A stretch of 55,990 bases of DNA from Flavobacteriales bacterium (GTDB taxonomy: Bacteria > Bacteroidota > Bacteroidia > Flavobacteriales_D > JAHECK01): contig JAHECK010000004.1 in assembly GCA_024641785.1 (NCBI GenBank), forward strand, positions 1-55,990. Direction: 5' to 3'. Position numbers and translations under genes: made by a program. Shown one piece after another: positions 14,280 through 49,780 of this stretch (positions are counted from its first letter, which is position 1; every line of letters begins with the position of its first letter). The notes under the pieces are model-generated. The model was given only the letters and a program-made list of their open reading frames with translations. It did no database searches and had not been told where the DNA came from.

Positions 14280-16299
14280 ATTCATCATCAAAATAATATT
14301 AATCTTAAGCTTTTCGCCTTTGTTAAGTCAGGAAAATGCGATCGATAACTTAATGCAGATAATTGTTGATCAATCGCTTAGCAATGAAGATGAAGAAAAT
14401 TTTCAATTCGATCAGATCCGGGATGAATTAGAAAAGATATACCTCCATCCTATTAATATTAATTCAAAAGAGTTTGAAGTTTTTCTAAGAACAGGAATTA
14501 TAAATAGTAGTCAATACGCTGCAATTGAAGATCACATTTTAAAATATGGGCGAATCATTGCGATCGAAGAATTGGGCCAAATCCAAGAACTTGATAAAGA
14601 ATTCATTCTTCTAATCAAACCCTTTATCCATTTCGAAAATCTGGCTGCCTTACCTGAATTAAAAAACGCAGCACTTTTCAATGATCTTAAAAGTGACCTC
14701 ACTATTCATTATCAGCGAACGCTTCAAAGCAGAGAAGGCTACAAAGGGAAAGATCCATTTTATCAAGGTGATCCTTCAAGAATGATGATTAAATATTCTT
14801 CTCGATTTTATAAAAAATGGCGACTCGGAATAAACCTTGAAAAAGATGCAGGAGAGGCGATGCAGTTTAATTTAAATAAATCAAAATATGGCTTTGATCA
14901 GATTTCCGCTTTTCTAATGTATTCCGGAAGTGGAAAACTCAAAAGCCTTATCGTTGGGGATTATCAAATTGGATTTGGTCAAGGCCTTACTTTTTGGCGG
15001 GGCTTTAGCTTTGGAAAATCTTCAAACACGGTTCCTGTGAGGAAGGTTAATGCCGGAATTAAAGCCCATACTGGACTAGACGAATTTAATTATCTCCGCG
15101 GATTAGCATTTACACTTTCGAATTCTCATTTTACTCTTATCTCTTTTTTTTCTTACCGCAAGCTGGATGCAAATGCGATCGACTCCACCTATAGCGTTTT
15201 CAGTTCGCTTATCGAATCAGGCTACCATCGAAGTTTGTCTGAATTAGACAATGAAGGAAGATTAGGTGAGGTTTTATGGGGAAGTCATTTAAAGTATCGA
15301 AGTCGACTTTTTGATTTTGGAATTTCTTATGCAAATCAAAACCTTAGCGCCAAAATTGCTCCAAATCCGAATTTATATGCCGTAAATTACTTTTCAGGAA
15401 ATACAAATACACTTATTGGAATGGATGCTGATCTTTCATTTAATAATGGTCACGCTTTCTTTGAAATATCCAGAAGTGCAAACAATGCCTATGCATTTCT
15501 AGCCGGTATGGTTATTACGATGGATCCTAAGTTCTCGTTTTCTCTAATCCACCGATCTTATTCTTCCGCTTTCCAAAGCATCTCATCAAATGCCTTTAGC
15601 GAATCAACTTCTATTCAGAATGAGATTGGAACTTATTTAGGAGCAGAATTAAAAATTTCAAGAAAAACAATGCTCAACGCCTATTTTGACATTTTCAAAT
15701 TTCCATGGATCAAAAGCAGAATACCGTTCCCATCCTCTACAGGCTCGGATTTTCTTCTAAGACTTACTCATAAAGTCTCTAAAAAATTAATAAGTAGTCT
15801 TCGATATCGAGTTAAAACAGATCAACAAAAAGCAACAGGTAGTAATTTGGTTCAGTCCAGAATCAGGCATCAAATTAGATTAGAAAATGAACATTCAATA
15901 AATCGAAATATTAAACTAAGATATCGATTTGAATTCCAAAATTTAGATTTTATCAAAGTCCAAAGCGGTTATTTATTTTTCATAGATATGATCTTTCAAT
16001 CACTCGAAAAACCTTATTCTTTTAGTTTCCGCTATGCCTTGTTCAATACCGATAATTACGATTCGCGGATCTATGCCTATGAACGCGATGCCTATTTTAC
16101 TTATTCTGTAAGGCCCTACTTTTATAGAGGACAAAAGATCTACTTCAATTTCAAATATAGAATGAAACGTTATTTTACTTTTTTCTTTAGAATCAGTCAA
16201 GTCACTTATCCCTTTAACTCAACGATCGGGTCTGCAAATGATCTGATAAACGGAAATCGATTAAGTGAATTTACTTTTCAAATAAGGATCCGCTGGTAA
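14266..16299 (+). CDS. ComEA-like helix-hairpin-helix domain fused to a predicted outer-membrane beta-barrel
   Basis: Signal peptide. HhH-like PININS...I.DHILKYGRIIAIEELGQIQEL...IKPFI. Motifs EKDAGE, VGDYQIGFGQGL and DNYDSRIYAYERD. Ends in an alternating strand with terminal Trp (FTFQIRIRW). Overlaps the upstream gene by 14 nt. Confidence 0.75.
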   Translation: MKLNRFIIKIILILSFSPLLSQENAIDNLMQIIVDQSLSNEDEENFQFDQIRDELEKIYLHPININSKEFEVFLRTGIINSSQYAAIEDHILKYGRIIAIEELGQIQELDKEFILLIKPFIHFENLAALPELKNAALFNDLKSDLTIHYQRTLQSREGYKGKDPFYQGDPSRMMIKYSSRFYKKWRLGINLEKDAGEAMQFNLNKSKYGFDQISAFLMYSGSGKLKSLIVGDYQIGFGQGLTFWRGFSFGKSSNTVPVRKVNAGIKAHTGLDEFNYLRGLAFTLSNSHFTLISFFSYRKLDANAIDSTYSVFSSLIESGYHRSLSELDNEGRLGEVLWGSHLKYRSRLFDFGISYANQNLSAKIAPNPNLYAVNYFSGNTNTLIGMDADLSFNNGHAFFEISRSANNAYAFLAGMVITMDPKFSFSLIHRSYSSAFQSISSNAFSESTSIQNEIGTYLGAELKISRKTMLNAYFDIFKFPWIKSRIPFPSSTGSDFLLRLTHKVSKKLISSLRYRVKTDQQKATGSNLVQSRIRHQIRLENEHSINRNIKLRYRFEFQNLDFIKVQSGYLFFIDMIFQSLEKPYSFSFRYALFNTDNYDSRIYAYERDAYFTYSVRPYFYRGQKIYFNFKYRMKRYFTFFFRISQVTYPFNSTIGSANDLINGNRLSEFTFQIRIRW

Positions 16300-27866: not shown

Positions 27867-29135
27867 TTGATCGTCATAATTTTACTCTTACTGATCTTTG
27901 CCATCCTCTTTCGCTGGGGGTCGTTTTTCACAGCAAGCAATATCCATTGGATGATATTACTTATTTTATTGCTTTTAAAAACGAGTGTAGGCTATTTATC
28001 TTATTATTATCACAATCATTATTTCGCCGGAGGAGATAGTGCTATCTATTTAAATAGCGCCAAAGATCTTATAAGCTACAGTGGGAATAGTCCGCTAACT
28101 TACTTTAAGTTGTTTTTTAATATAAACAGAGGAATTCCCGAATGGGAAGCAGTATATAGTCAAATTATTTACTGGGATAGCCCATCCAATCTCAATTTTA
28201 TCAATGATAATCGAAATGCCATTCGCATTAACTCACTCGTTAGTCTTTTTAGTTTTAATAATATAGTTGCTCATTTATTGATCCTTAATTTTCTGACCAT
28301 TACAGGACTTACTGCATTTTTTCGTGCAATAAACAAACACTTTTCAAACATCCCTCCTTCTTTCCTGTTTGTCGCCTTGTTTTTAAGTCCCAGCGTTCTA
28401 TTTTGGACCTCAGGAATATTAAAAGAAACAAATACTGTCTTTATACTTGGTCTATATATTTTCTATTTTGAGAAATTCATAGGCGACTTAAGCCTGAAAA
28501 ATGGATTTCTACTGTTGCTCTTTGGGGTAGGACTAATATTAGTCAGAACTTATTTTGCTTGTATTGTACTTTCCATAAGTATGGTTAGTCTCCTCATTCA
28601 TAAGCTTAAAATAACGAAAGTAAGTTATCAGATCCTGATCTTTGCGCTGGGGTTTTCTATCTTCCTGTCTTCCTTTTACTTATTCAAAGTTGATCTGTTT
28701 CAACTCATTTCAGAGAAGCAAGATGCATTTATTAGAATTGGTAGATCCGCAAATTCTTATTTTCAACTGGCAGTATTAGAAAAGCCGCTGGATTTAATCA
28801 TTTATTTTCCACAAGCGATGATGAATGTATTTATTCAGCCTCAGCTTTATACCCTAGACAACTTTCTTTACTTATTTCCAATCATCGAAAATATTGATAT
28901 CCTCTTTTTCTGTGCACTCGCTTTGTGGTTTAGAAAAAAACCGTCCAAAGAAAACAGACTAATCTTAATATCTTTTATTCTTATTTATATTCTAAGCTCA
29001 TGGTTAATTGGGATCACAATACCTATTCAGGGAGCCATATCAAGATATAAAGCAATAAGTCAAATATTCCTTTTGATATTCTTATTTTCTTTCATCGACT
29101 GGAAAAGATTACTAGACAACTATTTTTCAGAATAA
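27867..29135 (+). CDS. polytopic membrane protein, possibly Wzy/GT-C-like (start uncertain, TTG)
   Basis: About 10 hydrophobic segments, an acidic first loop (GGDSAIY), PSVLFWTSGILKE and a C-terminal GAISRYK. Confidence 0.6.
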   Translation: MIVIILLLLIFAILFRWGSFFTASNIHWMILLILLLLKTSVGYLSYYYHNHYFAGGDSAIYLNSAKDLISYSGNSPLTYFKLFFNINRGIPEWEAVYSQIIYWDSPSNLNFINDNRNAIRINSLVSLFSFNNIVAHLLILNFLTITGLTAFFRAINKHFSNIPPSFLFVALFLSPSVLFWTSGILKETNTVFILGLYIFYFEKFIGDLSLKNGFLLLLFGVGLILVRTYFACIVLSISMVSLLIHKLKITKVSYQILIFALGFSIFLSSFYLFKVDLFQLISEKQDAFIRIGRSANSYFQLAVLEKPLDLIIYFPQAMMNVFIQPQLYTLDNFLYLFPIIENIDILFFCALALWFRKKPSKENRLILISFILIYILSSWLIGITIPIQGAISRYKAISQIFLLIFLFSFIDWKRLLDNYFSE

Positions 29136-36115: not shown

Positions 36116-36123
36116 CAAAATTA
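36116..36123 (-). promoter_or_regulatory. -7 promoter element of mnmA
   Basis: TAATTTTG on the minus strand, 16 nt upstream of the ATG. Confidence 0.6.
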
Positions 36124-36332: not shown

Positions 36333-37406
36333 TTAAACGATATCCAAATTCAACATTAAGTTTATATTTTTCCTAACAAGGGCACCCATAGAAGTGCATT
36401 CTGAAAAAACCTCGCTCTTATGAAAACGATTTAATTCATTGATCAGCTGTTGTCTTTTTTCAGGAGTTGAAATCAAATCATTCTCCATTACTTTAATTAA
36501 GTGACGATACTGATATTCGGCAAGTGAAATTCGCTTTGCCATTAAAGCCCTTTCTTCTGCCTGATATTGCCGGATCGATTCTTTTGAAAGAAAGTCCAGT
36601 GATAATTTTACATATTGAAAATTCTCTGTAAAAAACTGGGGAAAATAAAATCTTAGGCGGCCTTCATAAGCCTGCTGATCAAAATCGATGGTACGAATAC
36701 GGTATTGGATCTGATCGAAATCGGGTGTCATATCGATTACGAAATTGTAAGAGCGCATATCGCCTAATAAACGAAGAAAGCAACGCTCATTAAATTTTAC
36801 AAATTCCTTCGATAATCGAACTTTATTATGAGGGTTATGCAATAGATCATTCTTTAAAAATTGATCTCCAGGAATTCCCATAATATGTTCTTCTACGAGC
36901 GTATTATTAAAAACGAAGTAGTTTATCTTATTGGGAGAAACGATATGCTCCAATTCTAAACCATAAATTCTAGATGCATCGGCTTGTTTTATATAATAAT
37001 AGTCGTAATTATCATTTACGGTATTTTTTATTTTTATTCTGAATGGATTTGAATTTCCAAATAAGCAATAATCAATACGATCTACCGAAAGGTGTTTGAT
37101 TTGCTCCATGTTTCCATCAGAAGCGAGTAAGACATAAGTTTGAAGTAAGCCGGTATAAATCTCATCCTGATTGCTCGGAGGATAGGAAACGATCATCCAT
37201 AAAGTGTCATTTCCGTCATTATCCAATAATGGAAAGGACATATCATACCTTAATAGATCTTCATAATTAAGAGGGAGATCCTGGCTTCTAAAAAATTTTT
37301 TTAAGTAGTTATGTAATTCTGTTTTAACAGGATAACCGGGCTTTTTCCTTAAATTCGAATCTCTCCCGTCTTCTGGATCTTCGATATGCAGATCATGTAT
37401 TGGCAT
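36333..37406 (-). CDS. uncharacterised cytoplasmic protein with PI3K/HipA-type atypical kinase motifs
   Basis: 357-aa ORF with no signal peptide. Ordered motifs G117-NSNP, YYYIK140, E151/E153, LVEEHI, LLGD216MRSYN221 and ID241FD. The gene itself is secure; the kinase call is an inference. Confidence 0.65.
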   Translation of the reverse strand: MPIHDLHIEDPEDGRDSNLRKKPGYPVKTELHNYLKKFFRSQDLPLNYEDLLRYDMSFPLLDNDGNDTLWMIVSYPPSNQDEIYTGLLQTYVLLASDGNMEQIKHLSVDRIDYCLFGNSNPFRIKIKNTVNDNYDYYYIKQADASRIYGLELEHIVSPNKINYFVFNNTLVEEHIMGIPGDQFLKNDLLHNPHNKVRLSKEFVKFNERCFLRLLGDMRSYNFVIDMTPDFDQIQYRIRTIDFDQQAYEGRLRFYFPQFFTENFQYVKLSLDFLSKESIRQYQAEERALMAKRISLAEYQYRHLIKVMENDLISTPEKRQQLINELNRFHKSEVFSECTSMGALVRKNINLMLNLDIV

Positions 37407-37435: not shown

Positions 37436-40400
37436 TTAGCGAAGCAAATTAACGGTTCCGTTTTTTTCAAATAATCGGCCTCCTGAATAATAGCTCACCA
37501 TATAAACATAAACGATAGGCTGCATCGCTGCACCATTATTACTATTCCCATCCCATCCAAGCGATCGATCGAAACTTTGAAAAACCAGGACTCCACTTCG
37601 ATCATAAATACGCATTATAAAACCTTTTTCATCTATCGTAGAACCCTCTACTTTAAATACATCATTGATTCCATCACCATCAGGAGAAAATGAATTTGGA
37701 ATATAGACTCGATGATCTTCTTTTACAGTAATTGATTTTTCATATTCATCTTCGCATCCAAAATCGCTGCTTACACTTAGCACTGCCATATATACTCCAA
37801 AAGACTTATATGTATGTTCAGGAGCGAGCATTTGGCCGCTGGTGAATTCGCCTAAAGCTTGATCTCCAGGAGAACCACTTACAAGGACTCCATCTCCAAA
37901 ATCCCATTCCATAAGGGCTGAGTTTCCACTAAGGTCTGTAAAGATCACTTCCCCTTCTGCCATAGAAACTACATCGTCGCTTACTTCAAAAAAGGCTTCG
38001 ATCACGTTTGGATTTTCAGGAACCATCCATTGAGAAACGAAACAACCATTCGCATCAATAACTTTAAAACGACTTGAAACTTCATTCAAATCACTAAAAA
38101 AGCTTGAAGAAACAGGGTCTTCATCATTCAGAACAAATTGTAAGGGTTCCACTCCACCGGAGACTACCTCCACATTCATCCATAGATCGCTTGGATCGCA
38201 GCTTGGAGAAAAAGGATATAATTCAAATTCGATCTGAGGAGGCTCAGTCGGAGTAACACTTGCTATCGTAAAACAGTTATTGTCAAGACTGTCAATAACC
38301 ATAACACTATAGGTAATTCCAGCCTCTAAATTAGCCTGAGTACTTGTTGTCACATCGTTGGTACTATTGTCCCATTGAAACAAAAACTGACCTGAACCAC
38401 CAGAATATTGAACCGTGGCTACTCCATTATCATCGCCAAAACAGTTTAATTCAACCGCTTCTATAAATGCACTCATGTTCTCAATTTGCAATAATGAAGT
38501 ATCAAGCATTGCAATACATCCATTTGAATCCGTGGTAATAATTTGATAGGATCCAATGGGAAGTCCATCAAAAGAAACGTAAGAACCAAGTTGAGTTGAA
38601 TTATTTAAATCGCTTTGGTATGGTGTACTTCCTCCGCTTATCTCGATATTTATCACACCACTATTAAGATCTGAACAGGTAACAGGATGAATTGAACTGA
38701 CATTGATGATCAGAGAATCCGGTTGAGAGACTACAATTGAAGAATCTTCTATGCATCCATTACTATCTTTTATATATAAAGTATATTCATTTGCGATCAA
38801 TCCGTTAAAAACACCGCTGTTTAACCAAGTGACTTGATCCATTGAAAATGTATAAGAGGGATTTCCACCGGAACCAATGAGTTCAATACTTCCATCATCG
38901 AATCCGAAACATGAAACATCTTCTACAACAGGCACAATAAAAATCTCCAGGGCATTAGGTATAAAAACAAATGTTGAATCGCTGCAACCTAGGCTATCCA
39001 CCCCAAAAAACTGGGTCATACCGGGATAAAGATTGTGAAATGTATCGCTAGTTTGTAATTCGTCAATACTTAATCCATATGTGGTCCCGCCATTTCCACC
39101 ACTTGATCCAACAAGAACAGTTGCCGTAGAATCCCCAAAACAAGCCGGAGGAACGAGGGCTAAAACATCAATATCAAAGGGCTCTGCTTCATAAAGACTT
39201 ACAATTTGTGAGACATTACATCCATACTGATCCGTAATACTTATATAATAAGCTCCATCATTTAAATTGCTGACTATAGTATCAGTAAAATTTCCTATGC
39301 CAGGAATAAAATAGTTATATGAAGGAGTACCTCCGCTCACTGCGATAGAAAAACTTCCATTTGCATCTCCAAAACATGTTGGGTTTGTAGTAAGAATAGT
39401 ATCAATTAGTAAGACTGAAGGTTCGGTGATCTCAAATTCGTATTCGATAGAACATCCCGAAGTATCGCTGATATAGAGCGTATATAAAGCGGAAGCCAAG
39501 TTATTAAAACTGCCAATTGTAGAAATTTCGGAAGTATTAAGCTCATATTCAAGATCACCACTTCCTCCATTTGCATTAAAAAAAGCACTTCCATTGTTAA
39601 ATCCAAAACAACTCACATTAGAAATAATATCATTTTGTAAATAAATACTATCAGGTTCCTCTATTGTAAATGAGAATTCGGCCTGACAATTATTTGAATC
39701 TAGAACCATGATCTCGTGTATCCCTGCATCCAAATTATTTATGAATTGATTTGTTCCATTACTTAGAGTATCAATAAAATAATAGTAGGGTGCGGTTCCT
39801 CCTGAAACGATCACTTCTACAATGGCATTCTCATCTCCAAAGCAATTCAGCGGATTTATTTCATTAATTAAAATTCCTAAGGAAGATGGTGAATTGATCT
39901 CTATGACAGTATCATTCGTACAAAAATTACCATCACTAATGCTAATAGTATAAGTGCCATCGCCCAATCCGGTAAATAATCCATTGGTATTTGAAACCGA
40001 TCCCGGAGATAGGGTATAATTAACTATTCCACTGGTGTTTTCTGCAGATAATGCAATAAAAGCATCGCTCATACCAAAACAACTTGCGAATCCAATTGAA
40101 TCTATGATAATCTGAACCTCCTGAGGATCATTTATTACAAAACTCAAACTATCGTTACAACCTTGAGAGTCTTCAGCATACACATAATGATCTCCGGAAT
40201 ACAAACCCATAAATGTATTTGATACATCAAGTCCACCACCATCTAACGCATATTCATATGGCCCTATACCATTAGAAATTGAAAAAGAAACTACTGCATC
40301 ATCATATCCAAAACAACTTGGAGGACTTATATTGTTCAGTTGCAAATTGAGTTGAGTAAGTAAAAAGATCTCCACTTCCACTTCAGCCATACAACCTGTA

Positions 40401-43400
40401 GCATCCATTACATTTACAATATAAGATCCTTCCTCAAGATTTGTAAACGTATTATCTGCCGAATAATTAATTCCATCGATCGAATACTGATAAGGGCTGG
40501 TGCCTGTTGTTCCATTTACCGTAACACTTCCCAAATTGCCATTATTGCAAAGAATATTCTGTTGAGAATAAATAGATCCTTGAAGTAAACTCTCCTGCAA
40601 TACTGCAACCTCAACAGAGTCAGAACAGCCATCATCATCAATTACCCAGGTTTGATATACTCCATTATCTAATCCTGTTGCATGCCCTCCCGGTATGAAT
40701 GTTCCGTTCACATAAAAATCATAGCCCGGGTCTCCTCCACTTGCACTTAACCAAAATTCTCCGGTCGCATCATCCACACAATTAATATTCATAACTGAAT
40801 CTAATTGAATTTCAAGAGTTTGAACACTATTAAGCAAGCTGGTTATAGTCGCCACACAGCCATTGTCATCTGTAACAAGCACCGTATAGAATCCTTCTCC
40901 TAAATTATTAAAAGAGCCTCCCGCTTGAGGAGGATTTCCATTGAGTTGGAAAGTAAAAGGATATAAACCTGAAATTACCCCAACACTTAAAGCACCATTA
41001 TTCACTGTCTCACAAGATGGTGGTGTTTGTGTTGCCCAAGCTAATGATAGTGGAGATGTAGCAACGATGGAAAAATTTTCACTGCTTGTACAGCCATTTG
41101 CATCTACAACATAAAAAGTATAATTCCCTACACCAAGGTTTGAAAAAAGAGGATTTATTTGAAAATTAATATTATCCAAAGAATACATTTTTGGAGAGGT
41201 CCCTCCTGTTCCGGCTCCGGAAACAGAGCCGTTTGTATCGATCATACATGAAACATTTACCACCCCCATAATTTCGGCGTCCAATGCGAAATTTGGTTCA
41301 TTTACAACTATAATTTCTGTAATGATACAACCATTAGCATCTATAAAATCTATATTATAGGTCCCAGCAAAAAGAGAGGGTATCATTGTATTAGCCGTTA
41401 GCCAGGCACCGCTATTAATTCTGTAATTATAGGGTGATTGCCCTCCGCTAATAGAAAAATAGATAATTCCATTTTCTCCACCATAACATAAAACATCTTG
41501 AATTGAATCGATGGAAACTGAAAATAAAGGGACCCCAATAATATTAACATTTTGAACAGTTTCACAAAGATTTGTATCTACGATCGTTACACTGTAGGGA
41601 CCTGCACTTAAACCAGTATAAAAAGGAACAGACTGCAATGGACCAGCGTTTAATGCGTATTGATAAGGCTCTGCACTTCCATTTGGACTTAAATAAATTG
41701 CTCCATCGCTATCTCCAAAACAAGTGGGTGCTAACAATGAATCTACATTTACAGAGGGTGCAGCAATCGCTTCAATTGTAAAGGTAGAATCATAAATACA
41801 GGCATTTGCATCTTGTATCCAAAAAGTATGGTCCCCCGGAGTTAAGCCACTAAAAATGAAAACCGGTGAATAGGCATTTCCATCTGAGGAATAGCTATAA
41901 GGAGCTATTCCGTCCTGACCTTGAATTTCCAGAGTTCCATTTGGCGAACCCGGACAAAGTGCCGTACTTCCCGATACTAGTTCAATATGAATTTGATTCT
42001 GTTGGGCCAAAGTAATTGTAGTGTCAAAAAGACATCCGTTCTGATCCTGGATCAAGAAAAAATAAGTAGAATCACTAAGACCGGTAAACAAGCCATTGAC
42101 TTCCCAATTTGAACCAAAATCAATCGAATAACTATAAGGTCCGGTCCCATTATTTCCTAATAAATCAATAAGGCCATCCATACTTTGTTCACATATCGGA
42201 TCAACAAGGTTTTGAACTGACGCTCCAACCGAGGAAGATTCAAAAAGATACACACTTGAAACGACGCTGCATCCGAGATCTGATAGAAGCGTAATCGTAT
42301 GAGGACCAATAGAAACATTGCTAAATACATTTGATAATTGCGGAATTCCATTATCTAAAATATATTGATAGGGAGCTACACCACCCGATCCTATCACCGT
42401 AATAGCACCGTCACTCGCTGTGCCGCAGATCGCATCCGTAACAATAAGATCATCGATCAGAAGGTCATTGGTTTCGACTAAATCTATAATAATACTAGCA
42501 GTACATAAATTAGCATCTAAAACATCGATCGTATAGGTGCCGGAAGACAAAGAAGTGAAAAGACCGGTCGACTGATTCGGATTTCCATTGAGGGAATAAG
42601 TATAAGGACCTACTCCTCCACTTGCTCCTACTTCAATTGAACCATTTGATGAAATATCACAATAGACATCTACTTTATTGATCAATGAAATGCTTAAGGG
42701 ACTTTGACTCCCAAGAATATAGGTTAAGGTAAATACACAGCCATTAGCATCTCTAACTTTAAACACATAAGACCCAGAGACCAATCCGGTAAAAATTCCT
42801 GAAATTTGCCATGGATTCGTTCCATTTCTATATTCATAGGGTCCAACTCCACCTGCACCTATCAGTTCAAGACTCCCGTTATTAGCTCCTGAACATAATG
42901 GTATTTGTACGTTTTGAATTTGAAAATATAAGCTATCAGGTTCCTGAATTGTTATAAGACTATCGATTTCACAATCATTATCATCGATGGCAGTAATTTG
43001 ATAATCTCCGGCTCCAAGACTGCCAAAAAAAGGGGTATTTACATCATTTGCTCCATCGAGTTGAAAGGTATAAGGAGGATCTCCTCCAATAACTTCAAAT
43101 GAAATTTCACCACCGGTTCCATTAAAGCAATTCGGATCAATAAGGTTAAAATTAGCCAGATTAAATGGTAATGGTTCAGTAAATAAGAGTGAAATGGAGT
43201 CGGTACACCCGTTCAGATCTTCCAGCCAAAACTGATATTGACCCGCCGTTAGGTTGCTAAATAATCCGCTATCTTGATAAGAAATTCCATCAACGGAAAA
43301 AATATATGGAGAAGTCCCTAACTCCCCAAGTAATTGAACCGAACCTGAAGCGGAACCATAACAGTCGATATTAATCTGATTAATAGCAACAATATTTATT

Positions 43401-43942
43401 TGAGATAGAGCAAGTATTTCAGTATTAACAGTATCCGTGTGACCAACTCCATCGACGGCAATGATCTGATAATTTCCACTTCCTAAATTATAGAAATCTC
43501 CATCCGATTGAAAATTCGCCCCTCCATCAATAGAATACTGAAAAGGAGCACAACCAGATGATGCTGAAACAATAATAAACCCATCTGTATTTCCAAAGCA
43601 AGCTACATCAGCCCATTGGAAAACACTTATGACTAATTGACTAGCTATATCAATGTTAAAATTGATTGTAAAAACAGCATCATTTGCATCGTTAATGACG
43701 ATACTATGATCTCCAACAACTAAATTTAAAAAATCACCATTCGACTGAATGATTGATGCATCAAGTGTATAGGTATATGGAGGAAGCCCATCTAAACCAA
43801 TTACTGATATCGACCCAATAGAAGGAAGTTCACATCCCGGCTGATTTATGGACACAATTTCTCCCGACAGGTCTTGACCTGTTACAAATAATGGAAGCAA
43901 AAGCAACCATAGGAGATACCATTTTTTTAACCCACCCTCCAT
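37436..43942 (-). CDS. large SprB-repeat surface adhesin with PKD domain and T9SS type B (gliding-motility-associated) CTD
   Basis: Signal peptide. About 25 repeats of ~75-78 aa (C.G...G.I.....GG..PY.YS.DG......F.GL..G.Y...V.D.NGC). PKD-like WDFGDG...PEHTY...G.Y. CTD-B VYIPNSFSPDGDGINDVF...IYDRSG...WDG...YVY...GTVNLLR. Confidence 0.93.
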   Translation of the reverse strand: MEGGLKKWYLLWLLLLPLFVTGQDLSGEIVSINQPGCELPSIGSISVIGLDGLPPYTYTLDASIIQSNGDFLNLVVGDHSIVINDANDAVFTINFNIDIASQLVISVFQWADVACFGNTDGFIIVSASSGCAPFQYSIDGGANFQSDGDFYNLGSGNYQIIAVDGVGHTDTVNTEILALSQINIVAINQINIDCYGSASGSVQLLGELGTSPYIFSVDGISYQDSGLFSNLTAGQYQFWLEDLNGCTDSISLLFTEPLPFNLANFNLIDPNCFNGTGGEISFEVIGGDPPYTFQLDGANDVNTPFFGSLGAGDYQITAIDDNDCEIDSLITIQEPDSLYFQIQNVQIPLCSGANNGSLELIGAGGVGPYEYRNGTNPWQISGIFTGLVSGSYVFKVRDANGCVFTLTYILGSQSPLSISLINKVDVYCDISSNGSIEVGASGGVGPYTYSLNGNPNQSTGLFTSLSSGTYTIDVLDANLCTASIIIDLVETNDLLIDDLIVTDAICGTASDGAITVIGSGGVAPYQYILDNGIPQLSNVFSNVSIGPHTITLLSDLGCSVVSSVYLFESSSVGASVQNLVDPICEQSMDGLIDLLGNNGTGPYSYSIDFGSNWEVNGLFTGLSDSTYFFLIQDQNGCLFDTTITLAQQNQIHIELVSGSTALCPGSPNGTLEIQGQDGIAPYSYSSDGNAYSPVFIFSGLTPGDHTFWIQDANACIYDSTFTIEAIAAPSVNVDSLLAPTCFGDSDGAIYLSPNGSAEPYQYALNAGPLQSVPFYTGLSAGPYSVTIVDTNLCETVQNVNIIGVPLFSVSIDSIQDVLCYGGENGIIYFSISGGQSPYNYRINSGAWLTANTMIPSLFAGTYNIDFIDANGCIITEIIVVNEPNFALDAEIMGVVNVSCMIDTNGSVSGAGTGGTSPKMYSLDNINFQINPLFSNLGVGNYTFYVVDANGCTSSENFSIVATSPLSLAWATQTPPSCETVNNGALSVGVISGLYPFTFQLNGNPPQAGGSFNNLGEGFYTVLVTDDNGCVATITSLLNSVQTLEIQLDSVMNINCVDDATGEFWLSASGGDPGYDFYVNGTFIPGGHATGLDNGVYQTWVIDDDGCSDSVEVAVLQESLLQGSIYSQQNILCNNGNLGSVTVNGTTGTSPYQYSIDGINYSADNTFTNLEEGSYIVNVMDATGCMAEVEVEIFLLTQLNLQLNNISPPSCFGYDDAVVSFSISNGIGPYEYALDGGGLDVSNTFMGLYSGDHYVYAEDSQGCNDSLSFVINDPQEVQIIIDSIGFASCFGMSDAFIALSAENTSGIVNYTLSPGSVSNTNGLFTGLGDGTYTISISDGNFCTNDTVIEINSPSSLGILINEINPLNCFGDENAIVEVIVSGGTAPYYYFIDTLSNGTNQFINNLDAGIHEIMVLDSNNCQAEFSFTIEEPDSIYLQNDIISNVSCFGFNNGSAFFNANGGSGDLEYELNTSEISTIGSFNNLASALYTLYISDTSGCSIEYEFEITEPSVLLIDTILTTNPTCFGDANGSFSIAVSGGTPSYNYFIPGIGNFTDTIVSNLNDGAYYISITDQYGCNVSQIVSLYEAEPFDIDVLALVPPACFGDSTATVLVGSSGGNGGTTYGLSIDELQTSDTFHNLYPGMTQFFGVDSLGCSDSTFVFIPNALEIFIVPVVEDVSCFGFDDGSIELIGSGGNPSYTFSMDQVTWLNSGVFNGLIANEYTLYIKDSNGCIEDSSIVVSQPDSLIINVSSIHPVTCSDLNSGVINIEISGGSTPYQSDLNNSTQLGSYVSFDGLPIGSYQIITTDSNGCIAMLDTSLLQIENMSAFIEAVELNCFGDDNGVATVQYSGGSGQFLFQWDNSTNDVTTSTQANLEAGITYSVMVIDSLDNNCFTIASVTPTEPPQIEFELYPFSPSCDPSDLWMNVEVVSGGVEPLQFVLNDEDPVSSSFFSDLNEVSSRFKVIDANGCFVSQWMVPENPNVIEAFFEVSDDVVSMAEGEVIFTDLSGNSALMEWDFGDGVLVSGSPGDQALGEFTSGQMLAPEHTYKSFGVYMAVLSVSSDFGCEDEYEKSITVKEDHRVYIPNSFSPDGDGINDVFKVEGSTIDEKGFIMRIYDRSGVLVFQSFDRSLGWDGNSNNGAAMQPIVYVYMVSYYSGGRLFEKNGTVNLLR

Positions 43943-44077
43943 AATTCTAGGTTTAATCTACTGATTTTGAAGATTATAATGTGTTTTATTAAGCCGTGCT
44001 ACTCAGGCCTTGGTTCAGGTTCTAAGAGGCTTTCAATAATACGAAATTTTATCTAATCTGAGGATAGAGTCAAAAGC

Positions 44078-44102
44078 AAAAGACCCGTAAATACGGGCCT
44101 TT
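44078..44102 (-). terminator. intrinsic terminator of the Asp-box T9SS gene
   Basis: Minus strand AAAGGCCCGUA-UU-UACGGGUC-UUUU, about 20 nt after the stop. Confidence 0.75.
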
Positions 44103-44123
44103 CAACAACTTACAAATAACCTT

Positions 44124-46046
44124 TTATCTATTGATAAATAATTTTTTACTCAATGCATTTCCATTCACAGCTATTTCAACAAAATAAATTCCATTATTAA
44201 AACCGGAAGTATTTAATATATATTGATGTGAACCACTATATAAGTTAGCTTTAGCAAGATCTGCCACTTTTTGACCAAGTGAATTAAACACAGAAATTGT
44301 AACATGAGATTCCTCAAGCATTGTAAATTTTATTAAGGAATAATCTTGAGCCGGATTAGGCATTATATTAAATGAAGTTACATTTTGTTCGATATCATTA
44401 ACAGACATAGGTATAAATTCAGATTCATCGAATCCAATTCCCTTTACATAAGCAAAATTAGTAATCGCTAATTCCCCCGAAAAATCAGGTACACATACGT
44501 AGGGTAATTCATAGTCAAAATCATCTCCTCCCGTTATACAAACCGGAGACATCGTTGCATAAATAGCCACCGTTTCAACATCGGTATCTAGGGTAAGATT
44601 TTTTACTTCTGTCCAGGTGTTATTTGTTACATCAATACCCCTTCCAAAAATGTCTGGTAGTTCATTATCTATCTCATCAACAGAAGTTAACCAACAGAAA
44701 AATAATTTTTCTCCATCTTCACTAACAGCAGCCTGTACATGGGTATATAGATCCTGGAAACTTGCTGCATCAAGAAATAGACCGGGACCTGAATTTTCAA
44801 TCGTTCCTATGATCATATCAGACCAGGTATTATCAGCATTACTTAGTGTATAATCCACTAAATAGCCCTCATAAAAGAAGCCCGTAAGATCTTCCGCATA
44901 CTGCATCACCTCACCTAAAACATGAAGGTCTCCATTGAGATCAACCACCGCATCAAAATCTCTGAAATAAGGCAAATTATTTAAAGCCGTACCTGAATTA
45001 GAATTTGCTATATCCAGTTCAGCTTGCAAAATCCATGACGCTCCATTATCCGTTGTTTTATAAACCACTGGCCGTTCTAATTCTCCATCATACTCATTTA
45101 AACAACCTCCAATGATCATATAACCAACACTTCCATCACTACTAAACGCACTGTTTATATTTCCATTTACAATAGGGAATCCTCCCGATAACTTAAAATC
45201 GGGTACAACAGCAGTATATTCCCAATCGAGTTCTTCGCTGCTTTCATTTATACTTCCTTTCCAAAAAGCATACTGCGTTAAATTTGTAATTTGATCTCCC
45301 GTCCAATTTGTTGAAATCGCATAGAAATCATCTCCTCCAACAACTAAACTACGACCCTGATAATCGACATTATATATTCCATTATCAGAGTCATTCAATG
45401 CTTGCAGAACTTGTTCATCGGCAGGTTCGCTTCCATCCATCTTTTGAGATCCAAAAAAAGTATGTGTCCAAATGGAATAGGCTCCACCAACCGAAACACA
45501 TGGTCCCATAGCGGCATAATAAGAATCATCCATAGTTCCACCTGCAGGAGTTAATAGTGCTCCCGAAGGATAACGATATCCATAAACGATAACTTCACCG
45601 TCGGGTGTTGCAAAATGAAGTCCATCATCACTTCCTCCAGTCGAATTTGAATCGACCATCATTGGGGTCAGCAGCTCATCGATTGTCCATGTAGCACCTC
45701 CATCAGTAGAGATATCATAACGCACGACTCCAGACCCTCCCAAACTAGGGAAAATGGAGACATCTTGTCTGTGAATAAAGCTAACGGCATCGAGTGCAGG
45801 ATTATAATGAACTTGATTTTGACTTGCATCGAGAATGGTATAAATATTAGAAGCGGTTCCAATGTAGATCGTTTCATTCATTTGTGATTTATCGATCACA
45901 GATCCAGAATTCGATTCATTTATTAAATGGTTATCTGAAGCAGTAGCTTCGTTCGATCTGGGAATGAGTTGCGATTGACTTGAAGATTGCGCAAAAAGCG
46001 TTGAAGCTGATATACAGATCAGCCCAATAAGTAAACGTTTTTTCAT
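44124..46046 (-). CDS. T9SS type A cargo protein with Asp-box/BNR motifs (probable beta-propeller)
   Basis: Signal peptide, Asp-boxes STDGGATW and TTDNGASW, and CTD-A IMPNPAQD...VFNSLGQKV...GIYFV...KKLFINR. Confidence 0.85.
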   Translation of the reverse strand: MKKRLLIGLICISASTLFAQSSSQSQLIPRSNEATASDNHLINESNSGSVIDKSQMNETIYIGTASNIYTILDASQNQVHYNPALDAVSFIHRQDVSIFPSLGGSGVVRYDISTDGGATWTIDELLTPMMVDSNSTGGSDDGLHFATPDGEVIVYGYRYPSGALLTPAGGTMDDSYYAAMGPCVSVGGAYSIWTHTFFGSQKMDGSEPADEQVLQALNDSDNGIYNVDYQGRSLVVGGDDFYAISTNWTGDQITNLTQYAFWKGSINESSEELDWEYTAVVPDFKLSGGFPIVNGNINSAFSSDGSVGYMIIGGCLNEYDGELERPVVYKTTDNGASWILQAELDIANSNSGTALNNLPYFRDFDAVVDLNGDLHVLGEVMQYAEDLTGFFYEGYLVDYTLSNADNTWSDMIIGTIENSGPGLFLDAASFQDLYTHVQAAVSEDGEKLFFCWLTSVDEIDNELPDIFGRGIDVTNNTWTEVKNLTLDTDVETVAIYATMSPVCITGGDDFDYELPYVCVPDFSGELAITNFAYVKGIGFDESEFIPMSVNDIEQNVTSFNIMPNPAQDYSLIKFTMLEESHVTISVFNSLGQKVADLAKANLYSGSHQYILNTSGFNNGIYFVEIAVNGNALSKKLFINR

Positions 46047-46124
46047 AGTAGTTAATTAGGTTAAACAATAGTTTTTTAAATATAATAAATCCTAATTAAT
46101 TAAATTTCACTCTTTTATAAAAAT

Positions 46125-46158
46125 AAAAAAGCCGTCCCGAAAATTCGGGACGGCTTTT
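46125..46158 (-). terminator. intrinsic terminator of PA-domain gene A
   Basis: Perfect inverted repeat AAAAGCCGTCCCGAA/TTCGGGACGGCTTTT with A and T tracts on both sides. Confidence 0.92.
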
Positions 46159-46176
46159 CAATAAAATTAATGATTC

Positions 46177-47916
46177 TTATTTAGAGATCACAACATTAAA
46201 GTTACTTACATTACCATTTGCGTAACGAAGACCAAAAGTATACATCCCTTTATCAAGATTTGATACATTTACTTTAAGAATTTCACCAGTACTAACACTA
46301 ACAGATTGTGTTTCAACTAATTTTCCGCTAATATCAAATATATTAATGGTAGTTAAACCAGAAACATTTTTCAAAGGAATACTAATGAAATCATTAGCAG
46401 GATTAGGGTATGGAGTAACGTCGATCACATTACTTACTTCATTAATTGAATTAGCATTTGCATCGAAAAAATGAACGGCAATACCAGGACAAATTTCTGT
46501 TCCAAATCCATTAGTATACCATGCTGTACCTTCTGAATTTGGGAAAATTGGTTGTAAATAATGGTTCTGAGTTGTCGAATAATCCAATTTAGAAGAGTTG
46601 AATCCTGTGAAAATATCGTCACTTTCGTAAGCGATACAGAATAAATATCTTGCGTCATCATCAAGAATAATAGTTTCTTCAAAAGGAGCATAAACATTTA
46701 CCTCATCCATATCTTCACCAACATATTCATAAACTCCTGAAGTTAAAAGATCAAGATCTACTTCATCAACACCTGTAAAAGCGGCATCATCTAGATCATC
46801 AAATTGAAGTGTCCATTCATAAGCATAAACAGAAATTACTTCTCCATCTATTGCTACTCCATTAGTACTAGTAGCAGCAAATGTTATCCCTTTTACTCCA
46901 ACACGACTTGCATTTGGATCTTGGAAAGCAACACATATCTGAATTTCACCATCAGGAGTAGAAGGTCTGTAATAAGTAATATTATCAGGTCCTTCAGCTT
47001 CACTTGGAATGTTAGCGTATGAAAATAAGGAATCACTCATTGAAAATGGAGCATCAAACATATCATCACTTGGAAAATCATCCGGAGTTCCAGAACTAAC
47101 GGAATAAACTAATTCATATACACCATTACCGTAAGAAGATTGACTAAAAGAAGGTAATTCAACAAACACGCTATCACCAGAAAGAACTTCAACAGGGACA
47201 GATGATTCACTGTAAACACTATTTCCATCGAAAGTAATATCAGCTGTTAACACAACATCTGATTGATCATTAACACCAAAATTAGTTACCCATACTCCAA
47301 GGTCTGGAGCAAACTCAGAAGCATCTTGCGAAAGTAATTGAATACTTGAAGCTTGAGGTGCTCTAATAACATCACTTGGCTTAATACCTAGGTCATTATC
47401 AAAATAACCAGTTTTATTACCAATAAAAACAAATAATCCACCTGCTTCAATTTCAGGTCGTAAACTTTCACCGGCAATTCGAGTGATCATAACTACAGGG
47501 ATCGTTACTTCAGCTCCAACAGCTCCTCCTCCCATTGCAATAGGATCTTGATCAGCGTAGGTAATGATAACAACGGCAACTGCTCCAGCTTCTTGACAGG
47601 CCAGTGCCTTTGCTCCAAATTCGCAAACACCTCTATAAAGTACTGCTACTTTTCCATCAACATCACTAATTACAGGAGGCTCACATACCAATGAATCAGC
47701 AGTTGCTGATCCATCATATGCCATTGCCATCTCAGCAAGTACAGCATTTGCAGGATTCAATAAATCTGGAACACTCCAGTCGGTACTAGCACTATCAGCA
47801 TACGTCATAACGTAATTTCCTTCAAGAGGAGAGGGTGCTTGAATATAAAATACAACCTGCGCCTGAGCAAAGGTGTAGCTTAAGGCAAAAAATAATAATA
47901 GTAAATTTCTTTTCAT
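46177..47916 (-). CDS. T9SS type A cargo with N-terminal PA (protease-associated) domain, paralog A
   Basis: Start reassigned to ATG 47916 by identity with paralog B. PA motif GKVAVLYRGVCEFGAKALACQEAGAVAVVII...MGGG...VTIPVVMI. CTD-A PYPNPAND...IFDISGKLV...GMYTF. Confidence 0.88.
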   Translation of the reverse strand: MKRNLLLLFFALSYTFAQAQVVFYIQAPSPLEGNYVMTYADSASTDWSVPDLLNPANAVLAEMAMAYDGSATADSLVCEPPVISDVDGKVAVLYRGVCEFGAKALACQEAGAVAVVIITYADQDPIAMGGGAVGAEVTIPVVMITRIAGESLRPEIEAGGLFVFIGNKTGYFDNDLGIKPSDVIRAPQASSIQLLSQDASEFAPDLGVWVTNFGVNDQSDVVLTADITFDGNSVYSESSVPVEVLSGDSVFVELPSFSQSSYGNGVYELVYSVSSGTPDDFPSDDMFDAPFSMSDSLFSYANIPSEAEGPDNITYYRPSTPDGEIQICVAFQDPNASRVGVKGITFAATSTNGVAIDGEVISVYAYEWTLQFDDLDDAAFTGVDEVDLDLLTSGVYEYVGEDMDEVNVYAPFEETIILDDDARYLFCIAYESDDIFTGFNSSKLDYSTTQNHYLQPIFPNSEGTAWYTNGFGTEICPGIAVHFFDANANSINEVSNVIDVTPYPNPANDFISIPLKNVSGLTTINIFDISGKLVETQSVSVSTGEILKVNVSNLDKGMYTFGLRYANGNVSNFNVVISK

Positions 47917-47997
47917 AGTATAAAATTTTAGTTTAAAAAATTGAGTAGGTGGTAAATATAATACATTCAATGTAATTATTTTTCAAACTTTTTTAAT

Positions 47998-48030
47998 AAA
48001 AAAACCGCTTCACAATGTGAAGCGGTTTTT
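47998..48030 (-). terminator. intrinsic terminator of PA-domain gene B
   Basis: Perfect inverted repeat AAAAACCGCTTCACA/TGTGAAGCGGTTTTT. Confidence 0.92.
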
Positions 48031-48046
48031 AATAAGTCTAATTTTC

Positions 48047-49780
48047 TTACTTAGAGATCACAACATTAAAGTTACTTACGTTACCATTTGCATAACGAAG
48101 ACCAAAAGTATAAATCCCTCTATCAAGATTTGAAACATCATATTTTACAACTTCTCCAGGAGTAACAGTAATTGATAAAGTCTCAACTAATTTTCCGCTA
48201 ACATCAAATACTTGAATGGAAGTCAAACCAGTTACATCTCTTAATGGAATTTGAATAAAATCTCTTGCTGGATTAGGATAAGGAGTAATATCGCTAGCAA
48301 CATTCACTTCATTTATTCCTACAGCATTAACATCTACCATTTTTACAGCAAGCCCTGGCACCATATCAGTACCAAATCCATTTACATACCAAGTTTGCCC
48401 ATCATAATTTGGATACATTGCTTGTAAATAAACATCCTGAGTTGCGCCATAATCCACTTTAGAAATATCATATCCAAATCTCACAACATCACTATCAAAA
48501 GCTACACAGAAAAAATAACGAACATCATCTTCTAATTCGATTTCATCTTCGAATGGAAGATAAATATTTTCTGCTGATAAGTCATCTCCAACATATTCAT
48601 AAACTGCTGATGACAATAGATCTAGATCAACATCACTAATTTCGACAAATGCAGGATCATTCAAATCTTCAAATTGAAGTGTCCATTCGTAAGCATAGAT
48701 TGAAATTACCTCACCATCTAAACCTTCTCCAAATGTAGACATAGCGAATGTCATCCCAAGTGGTGTTACTCTACTTCCATTTGCATCCTGAAATACTACA
48801 CAACTTTGATTTTCTCCAAACGATTCTCCTGCTGAAGTAAATTGTGCATTTACTGGACCGGTAGCTACATCAGGAACTTGAGCATAAGAAAATGTATTCT
48901 CACTCATCCTGAAATCAGCTAAAAATAGATTATCTGCAGGAAAATCTTCCGTGGCTGCACTTTCTGTTGTATAAGACATTTCATACATCCCTAATGGATA
49001 GTTTGCTTGACTAAAAGTTGGTAAAGCAAAATACGCACTGTCACCTGATAAAATATCCATTGGATCAGAAACCTCATTATATAAATTATCAACACCCAAA
49101 TTAATATTCGCAGTTAAAGTAACGCCTGTTTGATCATTCGATCCGAAATTAGTCACCCATGCTCCAACTTGAACATCAAATTCTGAATCATCTTGAGATA
49201 ATAATTGAATATTAGATGCGAATTGGGCACGTACAACATCATTGTTTTTTAAACCCAAATCATTTTCATAATACCCAACCTTATTACCGATAAAAACAAA
49301 GGTTCCACCAGCTTCAATTTCCGGTCTTAAATTATTACCTGCAATTCGAGTAATCATTACTACAGGGATCGTTACATCGACTCCAACAGCTCCTCCACCC
49401 ATTGCAACAGGGACTTCTCCTTCATAAGTAATAATAACAACAGCAACTGCACCTGCTTCTTGACAAGCTAAAGCCTTTGCTCCAAATTCGCATGCCCCTC
49501 TAAAAAGTACGGCTACTTTTCCATCAACATCACTAATTACAGGAGGCTCACAAATCAATGAATCAGCAGTTGCAGATCCGTCATAAGCCATCGCCATTTC
49601 GGCAAGAACAGCATTTGCTGGATCTGTTAAATCTGGAACACCCCAATCAACTCCAACATCAGCATAACTTAAAGTGTAGTTTCCTTCTAGTGGCGAAGGC
49701 GCCTGAACATAAAATACAACCTGCGCTTGCACAAATGTGTAGCTTAAGGCAAAAAATAACAATAGTAAATTTCTTTTCAT
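48047..49780 (-). CDS. T9SS type A cargo with N-terminal PA domain, paralog B
   Basis: Same architecture as paralog A. PA motif GKVAVLFRGACEFGAKALACQEAGAVAVVII and CTD-A PYPNPARD...VFDVSGKLV. Confidence 0.88.
   Translation of the reverse strand: MKRNLLLLFFALSYTFVQAQVVFYVQAPSPLEGNYTLSYADVGVDWGVPDLTDPANAVLAEMAMAYDGSATADSLICEPPVISDVDGKVAVLFRGACEFGAKALACQEAGAVAVVIITYEGEVPVAMGGGAVGVDVTIPVVMITRIAGNNLRPEIEAGGTFVFIGNKVGYYENDLGLKNNDVVRAQFASNIQLLSQDDSEFDVQVGAWVTNFGSNDQTGVTLTANINLGVDNLYNEVSDPMDILSGDSAYFALPTFSQANYPLGMYEMSYTTESAATEDFPADNLFLADFRMSENTFSYAQVPDVATGPVNAQFTSAGESFGENQSCVVFQDANGSRVTPLGMTFAMSTFGEGLDGEVISIYAYEWTLQFEDLNDPAFVEISDVDLDLLSSAVYEYVGDDLSAENIYLPFEDEIELEDDVRYFFCVAFDSDVVRFGYDISKVDYGATQDVYLQAMYPNYDGQTWYVNGFGTDMVPGLAVKMVDVNAVGINEVNVASDITPYPNPARDFIQIPLRDVTGLTSIQVFDVSGKLVETLSITVTPGEVVKYDVSNLDRGIYTFGLRYANGNVSNFNVVISK

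Follow-up and report, generated by a model that had tools for sequence, protein, structure and literature searches.

In the kinases PI3K and PI4K, the catalytic loop reads G-D-R-H-x-x-N and is followed by the motif D-F-G, and a helical (PIK) accessory domain precedes the kinase domain. We analyzed a bacterial gene whose product is predicted to share the catalytic fold of these enzymes. It lies on the minus strand of a 55,990-nucleotide stretch of a Flavobacteriales genome (contig JAHECK010000004.1, positions 1 to 55,990; "the window" hereafter means this whole stretch), at positions 36333..37406. An earlier note, made from the sequence alone, had presented the product as an active atypical kinase of PI3K/PI4K/HipA type belonging to no recognized family.

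The family does have a name, SEAE1, derived from Segetibacter aerophilus (founder WP_147203046.1) and introduced as a "putative lipid kinase" in a preprint of September 2026 (Krysinska et al., bioRxiv 10.64898/2026.09.18.752743, 24 Sep 2026). In the accessible part of that preprint, the active site is assigned to K140, R146, D216, N221, D241 and D243, R146 and D243 forming a salt bridge that replaces the usual Lys-Glu pair, and an AlphaFold3 model is described in which the catalytic residues surround ATP and two Mg ions. The same part gives 7,867 BLAST homologs (Bacteroidota 39.1%, Verrucomicrobiota 8.7%, Archaea 0.4%), an HHpred E value of 250 against PF00454 and, next to the gene of the founder, a PAP2 lipid phosphatase that is called lineage-specific and not defining, being confined to Segetibacter (4/20 genomes). 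A role as inositol-lipid kinase is suggested there. Among the papers matched by a full-text search for the name SEAE1, this preprint alone concerns the family, and a wider search on atypical kinases of Bacteroidetes gave nothing relevant among its 8 matches.

On sequence grounds, the window protein is an SEAE1 ortholog. It aligns with a Segetibacter koreensis protein (P0291) at 53% identity over residues 1-352 of both, without gaps (E 1e-133), and the homolog encoded at a Segetibacter sp. locus (L075) matches with the same residue numbering. Because the alignment is gapless, residues K140, R146, D216, N221, D241 and D243 of the preprint carry the same numbers in the window protein, and the link to the S. 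aerophilus founder passes through these genus-level orthologs and the identical numbering. Full-length homology to a Segetibacter protein, the six-residue catalytic set and a PI3K-like fold with no PF00454 sequence match are thus all found here. The neighbourhood trait described for Segetibacter, a PAP2 phosphatase, is absent from the window open reading frames (ORFs) of at least 200 residues and from the recurrent neighbours of the gene.

A single ORF of 357 residues, from ATG to stop, occupies the interval, and the plus strand across it is riddled with stops. The ATG at 37406 is supported, since relatives at 81-85% identity have the same N-terminus. All the motifs that the earlier note had listed stand at the residue numbers it had given them, including G117, YYYIK at 136-140 and LELEH with E151 and E153. 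The features of the gene, with sub-feature coordinates verified by translation, are given below.

36333..37406, minus strand: coding sequence of the SEAE1-family kinase-like protein, stop codon included (ORF, translation, homologs, model, single genomic copy).
37029..37061, minus strand: residues 116-126, FGNSNPFRIKI, predicted Gly-loop equivalent between the first two strands of the ATP lobe (106-114 and 122-128).
36987..36989, minus strand: K140, putative ATP-phosphate-binding lysine closing strand 133-141 (conserved in 126/126 homologs; equated with PKA K72 by the AlphaFold3 model in the accessible part of the preprint).
36939..36980, minus strand: residues 143-156, D143-A-S145-R146 and the candidate helix-C equivalent with E151 and E153 (helix 144-156 in our model).
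36882..36902, minus strand: residues 169-175, TLVEEHI, strand (169-173) and hinge-like segment (E172 and H174 conserved in 126/126).
36744..36770, minus strand: residues 213-221, LLGDMRSYN, putative catalytic loop after helix 195-216, with D216 (proposed catalytic base) and N221 (proposed Mg ligand).
36678..36689, minus strand: residues 240-243, IDFD, putative metal-binding motif (DFG equivalent) with D241 and D243 (D241, F242, D243 and the next residue, Q244, all 126/126).
36621..36677, minus strand: residues 244-262, post-DFD loop at the activation-loop position, likely substrate-facing (Y254 and N262 conserved in 126/126).
37173..37390, no strand assigned: stretch matched at 100% identity, over codons 6-78, by two metatranscriptome contigs (RNA libraries of one study).

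We built an AlphaFold2 model from a 36-sequence alignment (mean predicted local distance difference test, pLDDT, 84.5; predicted template-modelling score, pTM, 0.84). The first 19 residues are predicted to be disordered. The ordered part contains a strand (106-114), a loop that contains N118 and P121, two further strands (122-128 and 133-141), the second of which has K140 at its end, a helix (144-156), strands 163-166 and 169-173, a helix (195-216) that ends on D216, a hairpin (221-240) that starts at N221, and the D241-F-D243 motif; a lower-confidence loop then leads to helices that extend up to residue 352. Residues 244-262 are the lowest-confidence part of the folded core, with means of 59 and 71 in blocks of 10 residues.

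Among the Foldseek matches listed from the PDB, kinases are the only proteins. A Foldseek-independent structure search of 48,161 chains ranked PI3K, PI4K or PIKK in all of the first 14 places (Z 11.1 to 8.3 over 238-275 aligned residues), headed by ATM (Z 11.1, 272 residues aligned), PI4KIIIbeta (10.8), Tel1 (10.7) and Vps34 (10.7). Lower in the ranking came PI4KIIalpha and CotH (8.2), actin-fragmin kinase (7.4), WaaP (6.6), MavQ (6.5), HipA and CtkA (6.4) and Bud32 (6.1). In a second look, 998 chains were re-aligned and 65 of them reached Z >= 8; the best 50 of these 65 are all PI3K, PI4K or PIKK, with Vps34 first at Z 11.0. The catalytic-domain fold of PF00454 is shared at Z 8.0-11.1, with 233-275 of about 330 residues aligned. 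The structural match spans residues 28-357, essentially the whole protein, and no helical (PIK) domain is present, the kinase-fold alignment already filling this part of the 357 residues. The model therefore supports a bilobed, protein-kinase-like fold, closest to the catalytic domains of PI3K/PI4K/PIKK. The kinase-like fold of the earlier note is thus borne out, with the PI3K/PI4K/PIKK group as best match, and its HipA likeness survives as a shared fold only, HipA being a distant relative (Z 6.4 and 5.8, versus 11 for PI3K/PI4K). Because the top group holds both lipid kinases and PIKK protein kinases, the fold cannot tell a lipid from a protein substrate.

The residues proposed for catalysis are conserved throughout the homologs. 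K140, E151, E153, D216, N221, D241 and D243 are invariant in 36/36 sequences down to 52% identity. In a second set, where divergent representatives down to 32% identity are included, K140, D216, N221, D241 and D243 are invariant (32/32), and G117, E151 and E153 are not strictly so. Among 126 genomic sequences from two phyla, N118, P121, R123, K140, D143, R146, G149, E153, E172, H174, G177, D216, N221, D241, F242, D243, Q244, Y254 and N262 are the same in all (126/126). Other positions of this set show some variation: G117 is Gly in 115 and Ala in 11, S145 is Ser in 115 and Asn in 11, R218 is Arg in 111 and His in 15, and E151, M217 and Y220 are kept in 124, 125 and 110 sequences, respectively. 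Thus, the Lys/Asp/Asn/Asp set put forward in the earlier note is unchanged in every alignment; the glutamates named with it fare less well, and neither they nor the Gly-loop glycine are the best conserved positions of their region, where N118, P121, R123, D143 and R146 reach 126/126. As the catalytic residues are invariant across the homolog sets and fall on the expected elements of the model, the kinase motifs are not due to chance.

Four substitutions, S145N, R218H, Y220G and E248H, are found as a set in each of the 10 sequences (L107-L116) from more distant Bacteroidota families; E248 thus co-varies with positions 145, 218 and 220, and the phosphotransfer residues are unchanged in these sequences. 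Such coupled changes may point to a substrate-facing site with two specificity subtypes. A polybasic KKKP motif near the N-terminus is also conserved in the 36- and 32-sequence alignments. As a separate observation, two genomes of one genus carry a second, far more divergent copy of the protein (L124 in G194 and L125 in G266; E 1e-114 and 1e-97); these copies form long branches on the tree and are unusual in composition, yet they keep every catalytic residue.

Sequence searches describe a family that is large but compact. A search of 5.8 billion proteins gave at least 8000 homologs at E <= 0.001 (all of the 8000 candidates scored), the best 120 of which have no Pfam domain and, where named, are called "hypothetical". 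An exhaustive search of 50%-identity representatives gave 587 at E <= 0.001, mostly fragments. For the window protein itself, no Pfam family was matched at E <= 10 (so neither PF00454 nor HipA_C, HipA_2 or RIO1/PF01163), PDB sequences gave no match by phmmer or by profile, PADLOC gave none, PHROGs gave nothing usable (one match at E 0.41), and the only NCBIfam match was to MobA, below threshold (18.7 bits for a cut-off of 182) and judged to be chance. In the ESM Atlas, 29/30 matches are unnamed clusters; the other, a weak lead at rank 28, is a HipA_2 cluster (score 0.90, 133/256 features shared). Fusions provide no functional hint: no fused form recurs among the candidates examined, and the longer forms found among 2878 candidates are three singletons of 686-767 residues, one with HATPase_c. 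We also noted a metagenomic protein of 491 residues, representative of a 50%-identity cluster (P0121), with an N-terminal Zn_ribbon_TFIIB domain (E 1.5e-10).

Altogether, we propose, with a probability of about 0.7, that the gene product is an Mg-ATP phosphotransferase of the SEAE1 family, soluble, located in the cytoplasm and made of a single domain, with a PI3K/PI4K/PIKK-like fold from about residue 28. The protein appears to be soluble from its composition (isoelectric point 5.7, grand average of hydropathy -0.53) and the absence of any transmembrane-like stretch. We infer its catalytic activity, the roles of individual residues and the class of its substrate by analogy with PI3K/PI4K/PIKK and from the AlphaFold3 model in the accessible part of the preprint. 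On this basis, K140 and R146 would hold the ATP phosphates, N221 and D241 would hold two Mg2+ ions and D216 would activate the substrate hydroxyl, while a D243-R146 pair would replace the usual Lys-Glu lock. The flexible conserved loop after DFD (244-262), together with positions 145, 218 and 220, could form the substrate site. The gene would work alone, with no consistently adjacent partner, and would be old, as it is found in two phyla at about 50% identity. Provided that the protein is active, its substrate could possibly be a protein or, just as tentatively, a soluble small molecule; a non-inositol lipid or another membrane-bound substrate is a little more doubtful, and ATPase or other nucleotide chemistry is unlikely.

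Several points weigh against this proposal. No sequence method, neither Pfam nor a profile against PDB sequences, ties the family to any kinase, and SEAE1 is, in the accessible part of the preprint, defined purely by computation. A Z score of about 11 at about 10% identity, with a root-mean-square deviation of 4.2-5.0 Å, makes a clear but not overwhelming match for the predicted fold. The clustering of the catalytic residues in space would follow from the fold topology and from the AlphaFold3 model as accessible in the preprint, and the latter suggests that the canonical Lys-Glu pair may be absent. In addition, our proposal leaves the strong conservation outside the active site without explanation, and the scarcity of an inositol-synthesis enzyme among carriers, described below, is compatible with imported inositol.

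The distribution of the gene is patchy. There is a single copy in the genome of the window (3.31 Mb, 96% complete, 6% contamination), and the gene is carried, almost always as a single copy, by 89/400 Bacteroidota genomes in a sample where each is at least 90% complete. Carriage is sharply split by family code, with 27/28, 17/21, 9/12, 6/7, 5/5 and 3/3 genomes in some families versus 0/86, 0/61, 0/17 and 0/8 in others. In a species-level genome collection, 595/600 pattern matches were confirmed. A second phylum is genuinely concerned: a full-length match (E 1e-131 to 1e-155) is present, once per genome, in 50/251 sampled Verrucomicrobiota genomes, and several of these matches lie on contigs of megabase size. 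We had considered a blanket mis-binning of the non-Bacteroidota matches, and these 50 genomes show that this is wrong for Verrucomicrobiota. On the other hand, two contigs from Citrobacter and Dadabacteria metagenome-assembled genomes (L022 and L043), with about 40% GC, Chitinophagaceae-type neighbours and a place among Chitinophagales in the tree, are probably mis-binned, and contigs of this kind may inflate the out-of-phylum counts in BLAST tallies.

The two phyla are separated by about 50% identity. On an unrooted tree of 126 rows (LG+G4, quick search), the 21 second-phylum sequences form two blocks, but a tree joining all 21 is 56 log-likelihood units better than this free quick tree and is not rejected (approximately unbiased test, p-AU 0.95). 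One deep split between the phyla therefore fits the tree, which, being unrooted, fits ancient inheritance and one old transfer alike.

We compared five congeneric genome pairs, each with one carrier and one non-carrier. In one pair (g37) the flanks of the non-carrier abut exactly where the carrier has the gene, and in another (g10) they are 26 bp apart; at that spot the carriers have 1.28 kb or 1.21 kb, which hold this gene alone. In a third pair (g16) a 3.7-kb stretch faces a 1.6-kb replacement, a fourth comparison (g8) breaks at contig ends and the last pair (g35) has no synteny. Because the non-carriers of the first two pairs differ at the site by this gene only, the gene is dispensable and comes and goes alone: it is gained or lost singly, it is non-essential and its absences are real. 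The housekeeping role considered in the earlier note is weakened by these single-gene differences between congeners and by the carriage of the gene in only 89/400 Bacteroidota genomes. At one carrier locus (L083, 7202-7256, in G270), about 2.3 kb from the kinase gene, there is an element of about 55 nucleotides with 17 more matches (84-97% identity) across a congener (G026); it looks like a small dispersed repeat.

A bolder hypothesis, which we consider improbable as a whole, is that SEAE1 would be an ancient PI3K/PI4K/PIKK-type lineage that predates the divergence of Bacteroidota and Verrucomicrobiota and is one of the nearest relatives that eukaryotic PIK kinases have in prokaryotes. It would then be a stand-alone regulator of a conserved cytoplasmic protein or metabolite, not of an inositol lipid, with two subtypes (S145N, R218H, Y220G, E248H).

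The alternative that survives best, although we find it about as improbable, is the one suggested in the preprint, namely a phosphoinositide or other inositol-lipid kinase that would act at the membrane in phospholipid homeostasis. The lipid kinases Vps34 and PI4KIIIbeta are indeed among the nearest solved structures (Z 10.7-11.0), but the protein kinases ATM, Tel1 and SMG1 score equally high (Z 11.1 to 9.6). Likewise, the conserved KKKP motif could touch membranes, but the window protein has no membrane anchor. The PAP2 phosphatase beside the founder gene would also fit a lipid substrate; it is, however, a Segetibacter-only neighbour in the accessible part of the preprint, with no counterpart in the window or among recurrent neighbours. 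We looked for myo-inositol-1-phosphate synthase (MIPS, PF01658) in the 400 Bacteroidota genomes of the sample above, where the control genome, Bacteroides thetaiotaomicron, scored positive. MIPS was found in 76/400 genomes, that is 21/89 kinase carriers and 55/311 non-carriers; none was found in the genome of the window at its 96% completeness, nor in any of the 28 genomes of the family where 27/28 carry the kinase. There is thus no association of the kinase with MIPS, and most carriers (68/89) are unable to make inositol by the MIPS route. Since most carriers, the genome of the window included, are devoid of MIPS, phosphatidylinositol is an unlikely substrate.

A slightly less probable alternative is a RIO- or Bud32-like ATPase or regulatory kinase that would act on a large conserved machine, with ATP hydrolysis or autophosphorylation as its output. 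The sequence G-D-M-R-S-Y-N of the catalytic loop, with I-D-F-D-Q after it, is similar to the RIO motifs, and Foldseek matches Rio2 (4gyi) and Bud32 (4ww7) with a probability of 0.98-0.99, Bud32 being also found at Z 6.1. The unusually high conservation of the whole surface, with about 50% identity between phyla, and the lack of an operon partner would fit as well. Rio2 is at Foldseek rank 43 (E 1.1e-3, TMq 0.28), and no RIO kinase is among the listed rows of the 48,161-chain search. However, once re-aligned among the 998 chains, Rio2 falls outside the best 50 listed, which are all at Z >= 8.0. Moreover, Pfam RIO1 is not matched at E <= 10, the gene is dispensable and patchy, unlike factors of universal machines, and its window neighbours MnmA and RsmG are not conserved elsewhere.

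The possibility that the protein would be a pseudokinase, a catalytically dead scaffold whose nucleotide pocket is kept for folding or binding only, appears very unlikely. Pseudokinases normally lose at least one phosphotransfer residue, while K140, D216, N221 and D241 are all present in 126/126 sequences across two phyla. What would favour it is an atypical Gly-rich loop, whose G117 is not invariant, and the Lys-Glu pair that may be missing according to the accessible part of the preprint.

Finally, a HipA-type toxin kinase of a toxin-antitoxin pair can be given almost no credit: the distant fold matches (Z 6.4 and 5.8) and the one HipA_2 cluster of the ESM Atlas are outweighed by the lack of any match to HipA in Pfam or to PADLOC and PHROG entries, by very high conservation, by single copies at lineage-stable chromosomal positions, and by the absence of a small helix-turn-helix antitoxin gene both beside it in the window, where the neighbours are MnmA and a SprB-repeat protein, and as a recurring gene in 97 loci. 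The earlier note was right that no HipB-type gene lies nearby, which also holds for the recurrent neighbours of these 97 loci.

The phosphotransferase that we propose is encoded 29 nucleotides after the gene of a 2168-residue SprB-repeat protein of the type IX secretion system (T9SS), on the same minus strand. Beyond the kinase gene, and still on the minus strand, a 233-nucleotide AT-rich spacer is followed by mnmA, a GT2 glycosyltransferase, an extracytoplasmic function (ECF) sigma factor and rsmG. The earlier note had placed the gene beside core genes; its window neighbours MnmA and RsmG are not conserved elsewhere. A survey of 97 loci found that neighbours recur within lineages only. In Chitinophagaceae the order is a PALP/CBS enzyme, a periplasmic binding protein, the kinase gene, a class II fructose-bisphosphate (FBP) aldolase and a DeoC/LacD aldolase; Hymenobacter has a cyclophilin, an amidohydrolase and CinA, and Pontibacter has a LytTR response regulator and a ferritin. 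In the second phylum, one group has MsrB, an alkaline phosphatase and HolB, and another has 6-phosphogluconate dehydrogenase. An all-against-all phmmer comparison of the immediate neighbours detected no family common across lineages. A response-regulator receiver partner was considered, since such a protein is encoded within 5-7 kb in 13/97 loci, adjacent only in Pontibacter and at one other locus; this proximity was judged to be chance because the family is so abundant.

Transcription of the kinase gene is hinted at by the two short metatranscriptome contigs, which come from two runs of one study and in which DNA carry-over is possible; no contig covers the remainder of the gene, a gap from which nothing can be concluded. 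A sigma-70 promoter and terminator scan was uninformative, with 5 promoter-like sites versus 7.9 expected and 0 terminators. The sequence TAATTTTG, at window positions 36116-36123 on the minus strand, 17 nucleotides before the mnmA start codon, fits TAnnTTTG, the -7 promoter consensus of Bacteroidota; were it a promoter, transcription of mnmA would be separate from that of the kinase gene.

Other features of the window were also noted. A run of T9SS cargo genes occupies 37436-49780 on the minus strand and includes the 2168-residue SprB-repeat protein, which has a CHU_C signal, and three Por_Secre_tail proteins, two of which (46177-47970 and 48047-49780) are PA-domain paralogs. Three ORFs on the plus strand, at 13479-14279, 14266-16299 and 27867-29135 (266, 677 and 422 residues), gave no match to Pfam at 1e-8; the first and second lie next to each other and share 14 bases.

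The family is already in print, so the window protein is not new in this respect. Beyond the preprint, our analysis adds an independent confirmation of the second phylum, the patchiness and dispensability of the gene, the lack of an encoded partner, the coupled subtype and the negative co-occurrence with inositol synthesis. What makes the family worth pursuing is that a single-domain predicted enzyme whose PI3K/PI4K-like active site is intact occurs in about a fifth of the sampled genomes of two large phyla with no Pfam family of its own. If its substrate were identified, one more phosphorylation system would be known in bacteria, and this could help to explain the origin of the eukaryotic PI3K/PI4K/PIKK catalytic domain. 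The search is already narrowed: an inositol lipid is unlikely, no partner is encoded nearby, and congeneric pairs with and without the gene are natural comparators.

A parallel can be drawn with several described systems. CotH, WaaP, MavQ, HipA and CtkA have the same superfamily fold (Z 8.2, 6.6, 6.5, 6.4 and 6.4), but they score below PI3K/PI4K, none gives a sequence-family match and, unlike theirs, the window gene has no toxin-antitoxin, lipopolysaccharide-core or effector context. PIKKs such as ATM/Tel1, SMG1 and mTOR are as close as the lipid kinases (ATM Z 11.1, SMG1 Z 9.8), but they are giant proteins with FAT and FATC regions, neither of which is found in the window protein. Vps34 and PI4KIIIbeta (PF00454) align over 247-268 residues at Z 10.7-11.0, with a root-mean-square deviation of 4.2-4.7 Å, and share with it a catalytic-loop Asp and Asn five residues apart followed by an I-D-F-x metal motif. 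The loop motifs of PF00454 are nevertheless not matched, the window family having G-D-M-R/H-x-x-N and D-F-D with the D..N (+5) spacing and the metal Asp kept; identity is about 9-10%, the hidden Markov model of PF00454 does not match, and the window protein is bacterial, 357 residues long and devoid of a helical accessory domain, a C2 domain and a regulatory subunit. From SEAE1, as far as it is described in the accessible part of the preprint, the window locus differs by the absence of the PAP2, SmpB and AccD neighbourhood, and nothing structural differs. The two share the residue numbering, the PI3K-like fold neighbours, the lack of a Pfam match, the presence in Verrucomicrobiota, the types of neighbours in Chitinophagaceae (a substrate-binding protein and FBP aldolases) and a similar size of the family, 7,867 homologs in the preprint and at least 8000 in our search.

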